Positions 4,639 to 47,333 of a DNA stretch of 64,000 nucleotides are shown one piece after another. Positions within the stretch are counted from its first letter, which is position 1, and every line of letters starts with the position of its first letter. Below the pieces are notes generated by a model. That model had not been told where the DNA came from. It searched no databases and worked only from the letters and a program-made list of their open reading frames with translations. The DNA comes from a virus. Taxonomy: Duplodnaviria > Caudoviricetes. The position numbers and the translations under genes were made by a program. The DNA is taken from the IMG/VR virus record IMGVR_UViG_3300027740_000003, positions 32,001-96,000 of that record. The stretch is one strand, 5' to 3'.

Positions 4639-5277
4639 TTACTTAAGGTATGTTTCCATTTTCTGTTGGTCTTGTTGCAATCTTGCTAGAATATCTGCCT
4701 TGGTAGCTTCAAAAGCTGAAACCTTTTGCTGCACAGCGATTCTTTCCTGTGAAACCTCAGCCAACATATTTTCTCTACCAATACGAAGTTCCTGAATCTC
4801 TTTCGTAAGTTTTTCGATCTCTTGGGCTTTTTGCTGCATTGTATTGTTTACATCAGCAATTTTCTTCTCCTTAGTAGCAATTTCTGCATTAGGAGAGGTT
4901 TCAATGAACTTATTGAACTCAACGGCTTTTTTATTTACAACGCCGACGTAGTGAGTGATTGAATCAACCAGAGATTTTTTGTCTACATTGCCCATAACCT
5001 GAGCTGTGGCGAACACCGCTTGGTATTTTTGCTCCTCTGTCATTGGCATCCCTGCCATTTTTGCCAGGGAGTCTTTGAATTCAAAGTAATCGAAGCCGGG
5101 CAGATTACCCGCAACAATTGCTTCTTCAAAAATCTTAACAATTTCAGGATCGGCTTGTCCAGGAATAACGGGAACCACAGCAATGGGGGTCGGCTTTTCT
5201 GGTGCTTTAGTTTTTGGTGCCTCTTTCTTTTCCTCATCACCGGTTTCGACAAACAGACTAGTAAATTTTTTGAACAC
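4639..5277 (-). CDS. Coiled-coil hypothetical protein, first gene of the ABC/PspA-like cluster
   Basis: Low-complexity N-terminal linker, LPGFDYFEF motif, C-terminal heptad repeats. Confidence 0.75.
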   Translation of the reverse strand: MFKKFTSLFVETGDEEKKEAPKTKAPEKPTPIAVVPVIPGQADPEIVKIFEEAIVAGNLPGFDYFEFKDSLAKMAGMPMTEEQKYQAVFATAQVMGNVDKKSLVDSITHYVGVVNKKAVEFNKFIETSPNAEIATKEKKIADVNNTMQQKAQEIEKLTKEIQELRIGRENMLAEVSQERIAVQQKVSAFEATKADILARLQQDQQKMETYLK

Positions 5278-5287
5278 TATATTTTAC

Positions 5288-5557
5288 TCACTTTCCTTCT
5301 GGAACATCGGCCAGTCTTGTTTTTGCGTTATGTATTGCACACTGAGCTTTGTCTAAAAGTTTTTTAAAGTCGGGAGCTTGTATAATTACTTCAAGAATAT
5401 CGTCTTGATCTATTGTTCCGTTATAATTAATAGAAATAGTTTGTTCTAGTTTTTGATCTAGAACGACACAAACTTTAATACCGTTGATATCAACGGATCC
5501 AAGTTCTATTGTTTTTGTTGTAGTATTTTTTGTGGTGGACACTGTTAATTTGCTCAA
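5288..5557 (-). CDS. hypothetical protein (start uncertain)
   Basis: 89-aa ORF with TTG start. Confidence 0.55.
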   Translation of the reverse strand: MSKLTVSTTKNTTTKTIELGSVDINGIKVCVVLDQKLEQTISINYNGTIDQDDILEVIIQAPDFKKLLDKAQCAIHNAKTRLADVPEGK

Positions 5558-34401: not shown

Positions 34402-34758
34402 TTAATATTTGGCAAATGTTTTTTGAATTTTAATTATGGCGTTAGGCCATATATTATTTATTCTATCAATCTCTTCAGCAATTACTTTTACTTCTCTAAG
34501 TTTCTGATATCCTTCCACAACTGCTTTAATCGGTACAGATGCTACCGGAATATCCCCCAAATAAGCATTAACATAAGCTACAACCTCAGTGTATCTTCTA
34601 GTATAAATTTCGTTCCAAACAATATTACCTTCGCTTTCGGTAAGCAATTTAAGTACAGCTATTGGCTTATTTTTTCCGGCAAGTTTATATGCTGAAGCAA
34701 GATTGTTCGCCTCGAACATATAAATCTTGCCATCAATATAAGTTGCCTCGAACATCAT
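34402..34758 (-). CDS. hypothetical protein
   Basis: Tiling ORF. Confidence 0.65.
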   Translation of the reverse strand: MMFEATYIDGKIYMFEANNLASAYKLAGKNKPIAVLKLLTESEGNIVWNEIYTRRYTEVVAYVNAYLGDIPVASVPIKAVVEGYQKLREVKVIAEEIDRINNIWPNAIIKIQKTFAKY

Positions 34759-35744
34759 TGATCTAATAGCCTTAACTCATCAAAGATAACATAATTTGTT
34801 CCAACACAAGTATAATTTATAGCAGACAAAACAATTTTATTAAACATAACAGTTTGTGTAAAAGAAATCTGTTGACAACCATCAGCAGAAAGCTCAATAA
34901 AATCATCCGTTAACAGGTTCTGCTCCCAATATTCTCCAATGCTTTCCGGAGTATAGAAAAAGTTTCTAATAGCTAAACTGTCATCATTATACAGATCAAA
35001 ACTTACAGAGGAAAAGTTGTAAAAAGAAGGCTCGGGAGAAGTAATCCTAGAAGCATCAAGAGCAAAACACAGCTCTATACTATCAGAAGACATGGTTTGA
35101 TTAAACAAATATTCTTTGTAATTATAGATCGTACCACAGGCCGATTCTGTTTCACCAATGGCAGAAAATTGAATTATTTCACCATCCGAATTACAGGAAA
35201 CAATTGGGTTGCTTCCTTCGTTGGTATTAAGAATCCATCCGTCCAAAGAACTCATATCATCAACAACAGTATATTGATTTGTATCAGTAGCAGAACCGGC
35301 TGTATTAATCAATCCGGCAGAACCAGCAATATAAATAGAACCAGCGGCGCCTGCATAATCAAAAGATACAGAGCCGGCTAATTCAGCAGAAAATTTCCCT
35401 CCTCCAACACCACCAGTAGATTTAACCAGATGAATGTCTTCATCAATATAAGACGAAGTGGTTCCAGAGCTTCCGCCATTAGGGACAGATGGAGAACCAG
35501 AATTTTCTACAACAACTGTTCCTCCAGTATAATTTGAACCACCATTGTCAATATTAACTGTTCCTGAGGAACCGCTCTGAGCTACATTATAAATAGCCTC
35601 ACCAGAAGACCCGGCATACGTTGCTTCTCCACCATTATCTGCTGTTCCACCATTATCAGAATGGCTGATAGTAGTTAGTCCTGTTCCGGAAATTTGTCCA
35701 CAAGATAAACATAAAACAAAAGCTGCAATATAACAATTTCTCAT
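34755..35744 (-). CDS. Putative lipoprotein with Gly/Ser-rich linker and a C-terminal globular domain
   Basis: Signal ending LCLSC-G; repeated GG/SG/AGS motifs. Confidence 0.75.
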   Translation of the reverse strand: MRNCYIAAFVLCLSCGQISGTGLTTISHSDNGGTADNGGEATYAGSSGEAIYNVAQSGSSGTVNIDNGGSNYTGGTVVVENSGSPSVPNGGSSGTTSSYIDEDIHLVKSTGGVGGGKFSAELAGSVSFDYAGAAGSIYIAGSAGLINTAGSATDTNQYTVVDDMSSLDGWILNTNEGSNPIVSCNSDGEIIQFSAIGETESACGTIYNYKEYLFNQTMSSDSIELCFALDASRITSPEPSFYNFSSVSFDLYNDDSLAIRNFFYTPESIGEYWEQNLLTDDFIELSADGCQQISFTQTVMFNKIVLSAINYTCVGTNYVIFDELRLLDQ

Positions 35745-35746
35745 TT

Positions 35747-35989
35747 TTATTTTCTCGCTGGTGAACTGCTTGGAGGTTTTGATATCCTAACAGGACTCAT
35801 TCGAATGAATTTAATTTCATATTTTGAACAATACTTCTTAAAATCAGTTTCGTTGGTTTCTGGAACATCAATATCCCAATCGAAAGTTTTATCTGATAAA
35901 GATGAATATCTGTTTTTGACAGTAGCATCAAATGCATAAACAACAGTTTGAATTTTCTCAGATAATGCTTTAACGTTATACTTTACCAT
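35747..35989 (-). CDS. hypothetical protein
   Basis: Tiling ORF. Confidence 0.65.
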   Translation of the reverse strand: MVKYNVKALSEKIQTVVYAFDATVKNRYSSLSDKTFDWDIDVPETNETDFKKYCSKYEIKFIRMSPVRISKPPSSSPARK

Positions 35990-36004
35990 TTAATTAAACC
36001 TTTC

Positions 36005-36119
36005 GGGCTAAGTGTAGGATTTGAACCTACGTCTCCAAGATCCCTCTTGGGCTTTTCCAGATGCTATTCTTCTATTTCCTGGCGCAATAAAATTGTAGCA
36101 CACCTAAGCTAACTTAGCC
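36005..36119 (-). ncRNA. tRNA-like RNA with no anticodon (GGGA tetraloop), G-1:C73 His-type acceptor and an expanded D-loop
   Basis: G-GCTAAGT/ACTTAGC-C acceptor; GCTT/AAGC D-stem; CAAGA-GGGA-TCTTG; GAGAC; GTAGG-TTCAAAT-CCTAC T-arm. Confidence 0.8.
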
Positions 36120-36124
36120 AAATA

Positions 36125-36355
36125 TTATTCTTCGTAAGTAAGTTTATATTCTGTCTGTGGAGGAAACTCTTCAATCCAGTGATGTGGCTCAATGTCTTTA
36201 AGCTCATACGATTTGCTAGTTGTTGTATCAATAACAACTAGGTTGGTATTGCAGCCACCAAATTCAATACGCAGCCCTAGCTCGTCTGCTTTACAACAAA
36301 GCTCATCAAATTTTTTAAAGAACGGACTCTCTTCCAATAAGCGAAATGTAGGCAT
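36125..36355 (-). CDS. hypothetical protein
   Basis: Tiling ORF. Confidence 0.7.
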   Translation of the reverse strand: MPTFRLLEESPFFKKFDELCCKADELGLRIEFGGCNTNLVVIDTTTSKSYELKDIEPHHWIEEFPPQTEYKLTYEE

Positions 36356-36402
36356 TTTATGTTCTCGTCCTTAGCTAACTTAACCAAGATTTAGAAATTT
36401 AT

Positions 36403-36830: not shown

Positions 36831-37142
36831 TTATTGTCCTCCACAAACCCTCTTCCAGCTTTTTAGAAAGCTATGTATGTTTAGTTTTCCAATTGGATTA
36901 GCAGAATGAACATCATATTCTGGTACTGGTCCATCAGGATATTTTTCTACCAACCATTTAAGAAAATCCATTGTTGTTTCGTTTTTACCAAGGTCATGAT
37001 CTAAATCCATAAACTCTGGCAAACCAAGAACATTAATAAAACTTTTAGCCTCTGCAATAGAAGTTGCCGGAAGAAATCCATCAGGAGCCTCCCGTTCTTT
37101 TACTTCAAAAGACTGATCGTCTAACCAAAGTTTCCAGGACAT
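36831..37142 (-). CDS. Cyclic-phosphate-processing receiver domain protein
   Basis: LWLDD, MDLDHDLG, DFLKWL, VHSANPIG. Confidence 0.8.
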   Translation of the reverse strand: MSWKLWLDDQSFEVKEREAPDGFLPATSIAEAKSFINVLGLPEFMDLDHDLGKNETTMDFLKWLVEKYPDGPVPEYDVHSANPIGKLNIHSFLKSWKRVCGGQ

Positions 37143-46650: not shown

Positions 46651-46724
46651 AACAACACCTAGGATTTGAACCTTAGACCTTCTGGATCCGTTCCAGACGC
46701 TCTGCCTGGTTGAGCTAGTGTTGT
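46651..46724 (-). tRNA. Atypical tRNA-like element (loop AACGGAT, nominal anticodon CGG)
   Basis: ACAACAC/GTGTTGT acceptor, GCTC/GAGC D-stem, TCTGG/CCAGA stem, TTCAAAT T-loop; A33, U73 and a T-stem mismatch. Confidence 0.65.
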
Positions 46725-47260: not shown

Positions 47261-47333
47261 TAGCAGTGCTTGGCCTTGCACCAAGATCTCCTGGCCTTAA
47301 GACCAGTCGCTTTAACAAATAAGCTACACTGCT
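47261..47333 (-). tRNA. Atypical tRNA with a 6-nt anticodon loop (CTTAAG) and TGCAAGG T-loop
   Basis: AGCAGTG/CACTGCT acceptor, GCTT/AAGC, CTGGT/GCCAG, CTTGG/CCAAG. Confidence 0.7.

Follow-up and report, generated by a model that had tools for sequence, protein, structure and literature searches.

Covariation between two diverged copies gives strong evidence that a short gap between two small ORFs of a jumbo phage holds a real, selected and unannotated RNA gene, with a sequence that would fold into the L shape of a tRNA. The element is without any anticodon and carries a structured insert in its D-loop. The reading that we favour, and which we judge to have about an even chance of being right, is that it acts in trans as a non-decoding tRNA mimic, processed like a tRNA and with the insert as a recognition handle. 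The stretch of DNA analysed here (the window, 64,000 nucleotides) corresponds to bases 32001-96000 of a 435,004-bp IMG/VR phage record, which is rated complete and comes from a soil metagenome sample. Within it, the element occupies a 135-nt gap between ORFs of 76 aa and 80 aa, on the same strand as all of its neighbours.

The tRNA-shaped gene lies on the minus strand, with G-1 at 36119, C73 at 36006 and C74 at 36005 (Table 1). Read from 5' to 3', it consists of G-1, a 7-bp acceptor stem, U8 and A9, the D stem (GCUU/AAGC), A14 and G15, and the 44-nt insert. After the insert come U, G18, G19, A and A21, position 26, and a 5-bp anticodon stem with a GGGA cap, then a 5-nt variable loop ending in C48, a T arm with the loop UUCAAAU, the 3' strand of the acceptor stem, and C73 and C74. 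The acceptor stem (GCTAAGT/ACTTAGC, lengthened by G-1:C73), the D stem (GCTT/AAGC) and the anticodon stem (CAAGA/TCTTG) are all fully paired, the variable loop is GAGAC, and the T arm (GTAGG-TTCAAAT-CCTAC) is canonical. The bases for tRNA tertiary contacts are all present. The MFE fold matches the cloverleaf with the insert hairpin exactly, at -36.2 kcal/mol (z = -3.05 against shuffled sequences).

Two loops set the element apart from a tRNA. The standard anticodon loop of 7 nt, with U33 and a readable anticodon, is replaced by 4 nt (GGGA) here and by 6 nt (CUCACA) in the homolog on contig L116 described below; the GUG anticodon of tRNA-His is absent, and there is no other in its place. The D-loop, typically of about 7-11 nt, has 51 nt, of which 44 belong to the insert. 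When the insert is taken away an ordinary 7-nt D-loop remains, so that the insert resembles an enlargement of the D-loop at its variable alpha region. Extra bases in the alpha region bulge outward from the tRNA elbow, and by analogy the insert arm may do the same. The insert hairpin is unique within the 435-kb genome.

Table 1. Coordinates of the tRNA-like element, its parts and its neighbours in the window.
Feature	Position	Strand	Observation
Whole tRNA-like RNA gene	36005..36119	-	Rfam tRNA 37.9 bits; MFE cloverleaf; covarying homolog
G-1 and acceptor 5' strand (positions 1-7)	36112..36119	-	Pairs with 36006-36013; in the homolog 3 double and 1 single change, all still paired; G-1:C73 the same
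D-stem 5' strand (10-13)	36106..36109	-	2 double and 1 single compensatory change; preceded by U8 A9 (36111-36110), followed by A14 G15 (36105-36104)
44-nt D-loop insert, positions 15/17	36060..36103	-	Hairpin kept in L116
Insert outer stem	36101-36096 / 36066-36061	-	One G:C to A:U double change in L116
Insert inner stem	36090-36086 / 36076-36072	-	U:G to C:G in L116
Insert 9-nt loop GCGCCWGGA	36085-36077	-	Invariant between the two copies
Remaining D-loop (U G18 G19 A A21) and D-stem 3' strand AAGC	36051..36059	-	From the sequence; G18, G19 and A21 kept in the homolog
Anticodon arm, 5-bp stem and loop GGGA (36044-36041)	36036..36049	-	5/5 pairs double-changed and still paired; loop differs in the homolog
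Variable loop GAGAC and T arm	36014..36035	-	Canonical T-loop; G53:C61 in both copies
Acceptor 3' strand and discriminator C73	36006..36013	-	Followed by C74 and then no CA, as in 16/21 ordinary tRNA genes
Upstream 76-aa ORF	36125..36355	-	Stop 5 nt before G-1; syntenic L116 homolog, 53% identical
GAAAGG, Shine-Dalgarno-like sequence of the 80-aa ORF	35999..36004	-	Directly after C74; CCGAAAGG kept in L116
Downstream 80-aa ORF	35747..35989	-	Ferredoxin-like fold in Atlas model (a lead only); L116/L117 homolog
cREC_REC gene, predicted cyclic-phosphate-processing receiver domain	36831..37142	-	PF20274, E 2.2e-18; same synteny in L116 and L373
15/17 copy of the first 17 nt of the RNA, upstream of the 76-aa ORF	36369..36385	-	2 matches against 0.11 expected by chance

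Standard annotation tools overlook the element. Default ARAGORN and two Rfam scans of the whole window missed it, and the Rfam tRNA model (RF00005) reports it only in a scan of 2.5 kb with lax filters, at 37.9 bits (gathering score 29, E 8.5e-6). The Rfam alignment puts a 49-nt insertion in the D-loop and 4 nt in the anticodon loop. In the 2.5-kb scan there was no match of tmRNA-clan models to the element, and none of intron families, including group I, to the region. The YrlA model (RF02553), with E values up to 10 allowed, had no match between 35000 and 37500.

The 80-aa protein has one homolog of 80% identity (P0002), encoded on contigs from ENA (L116) and Logan (L117). The order of genes on these contigs is that of the window: cREC, small ORFs, a 73-aa ORF, a 137-nt gap, a 76-aa ORF and a lipoprotein-like gene. 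The 73-aa ORF of L116 is the homolog of the window's 76-aa ORF (53% identity), and the 76-aa ORF of L116 is the homolog of the window's 80-aa ORF. The 137-nt gap contains a homolog of the tRNA-like RNA, which a single-sequence model (R1) matches with 56 bits (E 1.7e-12). A third and closer relative (L373) is identical in the first 59 nt and has about 20 changes in the adjacent ORF; its contig stops inside the element. The known copies are two independent sequences and one near-identical partial sequence, and this small number counts against the favoured reading.

Base pairs were compared between the window and L116 copies, using a manual structural alignment held in a script, since a MAFFT alignment of the two misplaced the stems. 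Among 33 pairs, 16 are the same, 12 are double-changed and still paired, 4 are single-changed and still paired, and 1, the G:U at the end of the insert stem, is broken. The 12 double changes are spread over the acceptor stem (3), D stem (2), anticodon stem (5, i.e. every pair), T stem (1) and insert (1). In the four canonical stems only 17 of 42 bases are identical, yet 22 of 22 pairs hold. When the 3' partners were re-dealt among the changed pairs, the observed pairing was reached in 16 of 100,000 trials. The Levitt pair covaries as well, from G15:C48 to A15:U48 in L116, and U8, A14, G18, G19, A21, the T-loop and G53:C61 are kept there. Both copies have G-1:C73, even though every pair from 1:72 to 4:69 differs. 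In L116, the helices common to both copies reach -25.5 kcal/mol when folded from the sense strand and only -18.5 kcal/mol from the opposite one, a difference due to the five G:U pairs of this copy. For the L116 copy, the MFE structure is other than the cloverleaf (-29.7 versus -25.5 kcal/mol), which also speaks against the reading that we prefer.

Three features are common to the two copies: the lack of a normal 7-nt anticodon loop, the G-1:C73 pair, and the insert hairpin. In both, the insert has an outer stem of 5-6 bp, an inner stem YUAUU/AAUAG, the 9-nt loop GCGCCWGGA, and the string CUACAAUU. At the level of sequence, the comparison establishes the fold, the compensatory conservation, the non-canonical loop and the conserved insert. 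Much of the original prediction is borne out by it. The acceptor, D, anticodon and T stems and an insert stem (GTGCTA/TAGCAT) were all found, fully paired, and G-1:C73 proved to be encoded in both copies, a combination present in 0 of the 21 ordinary tRNA genes of the phage. Homologs with covariation were to be sought in phage genomes, and the L116 copy covaries in the acceptor, D, anticodon, T and insert stems. The view that this is not a decayed tRNA agrees with a syntenic and diverged homolog in which every canonical pair is held, with its compensatory double changes. By contrast, the claimed inner CAAT-TTT-ATTG hairpin of the insert finds no support in the comparison, as the homolog favours the YUAUU/AAUAG stem closing the 9-nt loop, and a stable GNRA tetraloop is not supported as the purpose-built feature that was proposed, as the anticodon stem of the homolog ends in the 6-nt CUCACA loop.

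Further relatives of the element were sought by several routes. BLAST of the locus against 50,697 deposited phage genomes gave no near or distant match, and the exact 17-mer of the RNA 5' end gave none in IMG/VR. Every match of the insert-core pattern ATTGCGCCNGGAAATAG in IMG/VR, and every one among the matches listed from metagenomes, was due to chance and fell in DNA that is unrelated and mostly coding. No further homolog was recovered with a loop-plus-T-arm pattern in IMG/VR or with a 19-base pattern in GTDB genomes, and a search through the 329-aa neighbour yielded no relatives. When 1.84 billion proteins were searched with a profile of the 80-aa protein, one further, weak homolog came up, which has no room upstream for the RNA. 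In three more distant cREC-bearing jumbo phages model R1 had no match and there was no synteny, a further point against the element being a trans-acting mimic.

The gene for the predicted cREC protein lies 0.7 kb upstream of the element. A role in processing RNA ends with a 2',3'-cyclic phosphate has been proposed for this domain, which in jumbo phages is tied to RNA ligases (PMC7824862). Another phage, of 436 kb and with terminal repeats, has a cREC gene (5001-5297) amid an array of about 30 tRNA genes (L003:1-10297). The 76-aa and 80-aa ORFs flanking the element had no Pfam, PHROG or NCBIfam match and have no recognisable RNA-binding domain, which again weighs against the favoured reading. 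Structural neighbours of the Atlas model of the 80-aa protein are EFG_C, ACT and DUF1949. The 329-aa neighbour (34755-35744, minus strand) is a lipoprotein-like, galactose-binding-like protein with no relation to RNA. Its N-terminus is of the lipoprotein type and its C-terminal domain, in the Atlas model, is galactose-binding-like; it also has a Gly/Ser-rich linker, which is 85 residues shorter in the L116 homolog.

Upstream of the element, the repeat at 36369-36385 suggests either a junction formed by recombination or a trace of mobile DNA. The direct repeats bracket the 76-aa ORF; in L373 the upstream copy is absent and the DNA beyond it is different. In a relative from a groundwater metagenome (run X3, 2,837-nt contig), the segment 36434-36579 is inverted relative to the window, with collinear flanks.

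ARAGORN finds 21 tRNA genes and a tmRNA in the phage genome, all on the minus strand. C74 is encoded in 21 of the 21 ordinary tRNA genes, CA is missing in 16 of them, and the N73-C74 end of the element is alike. C73 occurs in one of these genes and never together with G-1. The phage's own tRNA-His(GUG) (157163-157237) has A73, T at -1 (i.e. no encoded G-1), and an A3-C70 mismatch. The genome also encodes a Thg1-family 3'-5' nucleotidyltransferase (111 bits; G000:C1:170355-170765, minus strand) and two adjacent proteins of the PolyA_pol/CCA-adding family (G000:C1 332101-333329, minus strand). To judge from these genes, G-1 would be added to the real tRNA-His after transcription, so it would matter for histidine identity here. 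Following this chain of inference, a mimic would offer no anticodon for a Thg1-type enzyme to read, and its G-1 would therefore have to be encoded, as is found.

Several other tRNA genes of this phage are unusual. In the main tRNA cluster, at G000:C1:161483-161605 (minus strand), ARAGORN with introns allowed reports a tRNA-His(GUG) whose anticodon loop has an insertion of 50 nt, and this insertion holds a T-arm-like hairpin. Of two odd tRNA genes at 46651-46724 and 47261-47333 (both minus strand), one has an anticodon loop without U33 (Rfam 44.3 bits) and the other an anticodon loop of 6 nt, to which ARAGORN assigns a 2-base anticodon (45.6 bits); the loop of the L116 homolog also has 6 nt.

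A Pfam search of the 435-kb genome found no TROVE (PF05731), RtcB, Pth, HisRS or class-II synthetase core. The proposed link between the element and a TROVE-like protein is therefore not upheld; the 693-aa ORF (15963-18044, minus strand) has no TROVE match either. This ORF matches NCBIfam NF041916 (MXAN_6230/SCO0854 family RING domain protein) with E 1.9e-65, under the equivalog cut-off, and is followed by two repeated structured units at about 15816-15960.

As a tRNA mimic, the element might work in the following way. The locus would be transcribed with the leftward operon, and the RNA would fold into a normal L-shaped tRNA body. It would probably be excised by the enzymes that mature the 21 ordinary tRNAs, with RNase P acting at the 5' end, a cut at the 3' end, and completion of CCA. 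Counted in favour of this reading is the maturation toolkit of the phage, with its Thg1-like gene, two PolyA_pol/CCA-family genes, tmRNA and nearby cREC. An anticodon loop of 4 nt, or 6 nt in the relative, would make the reading of codons impossible. What is kept instead is the acceptor end with its histidine-type G-1:C73, plus a helical arm between positions 15 and 17 that presents the invariant GCGCCWGGA loop. We take this arm to be a specific handle by which a partner, either a protein or an RNA, would recognise the element. The RNA would then serve as a ligand for readers of the tRNA acceptor, T arm or elbow, in the role of decoy, adaptor or carrier outside the ribosome, and the missing anticodon and the bulky elbow arm would both exclude it from translation. 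We infer transcription, processing, action in trans and the partner of the element; a search for RNA-seq evidence brought up no RNA run.

A bolder version of the mimic reading, of which we are doubtful, would make the element the representative of a novel class of tRNA mimic in phages. It would be an RNA of histidine identity (G-1:C73) that stays off the ribosome and docks by its GCGCCWGGA arm onto a dedicated phage or host protein. In the conflict between jumbo phage and host over tRNA, its part could be that of a charged carrier or of a decoy with high affinity, alongside the Thg1-like, CCA-adding and cREC enzymes.

Since the ribosome-binding site of the next gene follows the element without a gap, the role of the element could also be purely in cis. 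Here the tRNA shape would be a processing signal ("tRNA punctuation"), at which RNase P and a 3' nuclease would cut the mRNA between the 76-aa and 80-aa genes, and the freed RNA would have no function. The start of the element 5 nt past the upstream stop, its end at GAAAGG, the same layout in L116, and its position within a polycistronic unit on the strand of all its neighbours are consistent with such a signal. However, an acceptor/T-arm minihelix plus elbow would suffice for punctuation, which leaves the 44-nt insert with its invariant loop, the anticodon stem with double changes in all five pairs, and the G-1:C73 pair unexplained, and a distant homolog of the 80-aa protein (P0009) has no upstream room for such an element. 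We regard punctuation as unlikely. The signal might instead reside in the DNA, where an internal promoter of the 80-aa gene would have CTACAAT of the insert as its -10 box, and the 5' UTR of that gene would be formed by the 3' half of the element. There is a sigma-70-like TTGGCT-18-TACAAT with an upstream TG at 36121-36092, and TACAAT and TTGG are kept in L116. Nevertheless, promoter-like matches in the region do not exceed those in shuffled sequences (12 found versus 10.3 expected) and the spacer in L116 is 19 nt; moreover, a transcript starting inside the insert could not build the acceptor and D stems, yet both covary. We consider an internal promoter highly improbable. The idea of a decaying tRNA pseudogene, or of a decoding tRNA with an intron in its D-loop, is largely refuted and of all these explanations the hardest to credit. 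The D-loop is of normal size (7 nt) without the insert, and ARAGORN with introns allowed can be forced to a tRNA-Glu(UUC); this model is contrived, with a poor anticodon stem, and is not common to the homolog. The compensatory evolution of every stem excludes a pseudogene in decay, the anticodon loop has 4 or 6 nt even without the insert, and for an intron there is neither a group I match in Rfam, for which 44 nt would in any case be too short, nor a visible bulge-helix-bulge motif.

The remaining explanation is a sharper form of the trans-acting mimic, and we think it rather improbable in this specific form: a histidine-accepting, non-ribosomal tRNA, charged by HisRS through G-1:C73 and acting as an aminoacyl donor or as a decoy for HisRS. 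G-1:C73 is the main determinant for bacterial HisRS and is effective even in minihelices. The retention of this pair while pairs 1:72 to 4:69 changed, its absence from the 21 ordinary tRNA genes (with C73 seen once), and the contrast with a real tRNA-His(GUG) that has A73 and no encoded G-1, in a phage with a Thg1-family enzyme, make histidylation of the element plausible on sequence grounds. Against it, neither a phage HisRS nor a class-II synthetase core turned up in the genome search, the neighbouring genes include no recognisable aminoacyl-transferase, and the bases flanking -1 and 73 are conserved anyway (TTTG..., ...CCGAAAGG), perhaps for other reasons.

Phage tRNA genes are usually viewed as helpers in codon usage or as spares against anticodon nucleases. 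A tRNA body that is under structural selection, has lost decoding and has gained an arm suggests that the tRNA fold also serves purposes other than translation. Should the partner of the arm be identified, a new node in the conflict between phage and host over tRNA might come to light, and the element would be a natural example of D-loop positions 15 to 17 tolerating a large functional insertion.

A structural pattern scan of IMG/VR returned unrelated phage look-alikes that have acceptor, D and T arms and an anticodon stem with a short cap. In L025/L091, a small GAAA-capped hairpin in the D-loop is combined with a GAAA-capped anticodon stem (Rfam tRNA 48 bits). The L015 group, comprising about ten contigs, has a GUGA cap (39 bits) and is found in a tail-gene module. 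In L050 (5426-7988, minus strand), a Ro60 gene (TROVE + vWA_Ro60) is followed by a GCAA-capped tRNA-shaped gene (43 bits) and next by two tandem YrlA-like RNAs, which score 43 bits each with RF02553, under the gathering score. Unlike these look-alikes, which lie in other contexts (tail module, Dam/HNH region, Ro60 locus) and have no sequence homology to it, the element has the GCGCCWGGA arm. Two other candidates, L016 and L098, were discarded as pieces of permuted tmRNA. By eye, L055:1243 (plus strand) and L077:7821 (plus strand) are candidate tmRNA tRNA-like domains closed by a tetraloop, with no mRNA part.

Of the known systems, tRNA itself and tRNA-His (RF00005) have the same four-stem cloverleaf, tertiary-contact bases, T-loop, 5-nt variable loop and 8-bp acceptor with G-1:C73. 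The element differs from them in having no 7-nt anticodon loop, U33 or GUG, and a D-loop of 51 nt, with a conserved hairpin arm, as opposed to 7-11 nt. YrlA and bacterial Y RNAs with a tRNA-like domain are reported to be partners of Ro60 (Chen et al. 2014; Wang et al. 2018). YrlA (RF02553) resembles the element in being a close, non-decoding tRNA mimic tied to genes of RNA repair or surveillance. In YrlA, however, the acceptor end is closed and the termini lie at the anticodon side, in the Ro60-binding helix, whereas in the element the acceptor is open and the anticodon stem capped; the element also has no RF02553 match, and the genome no Pfam TROVE gene. The role of bacterial Y RNA as a partner of Ro60 is summarised in PMC7824862. 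The tRNA-like domain of tmRNA, a molecule that this phage also has, is likewise an anticodon-less mimic that keeps the acceptor and T arm. In contrast to the element, with its covarying D stem, capped anticodon stem and no coding part, tmRNA is without a D stem and runs into a long helix and an mRNA part.

Plant mitochondrial t-elements and the mascRNA of MALAT1 are tRNA-like processing elements that recruit RNase P and RNase Z. As in these, the tRNA shape of the element, which lies between two ORFs, would be part of a longer transcript; unlike them, as they are usually minimal or degenerate, it keeps the whole core and a conserved arm. Other tRNA-related RNAs outside decoding, encoded by phages or cells, are the stable RNAs of the phage T4 tRNA cluster (species 1 and 2, RNA C and D) and the non-proteinogenic tRNA-Gly of Staphylococcus. 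We know of no sequence relation of the element to the T4 stable RNAs or the staphylococcal tRNA-Gly, and the latter, unlike the element, retains a normal anticodon loop. Our search of the literature gave no account of a tRNA body whose D-loop bears a conserved and structured arm. In its working the element would be most like the known tRNA mimics and tRNA-like processing elements. It belongs among the tRNA mimics, found so far in one narrow lineage of jumbo phages, and its D-loop arm is new.
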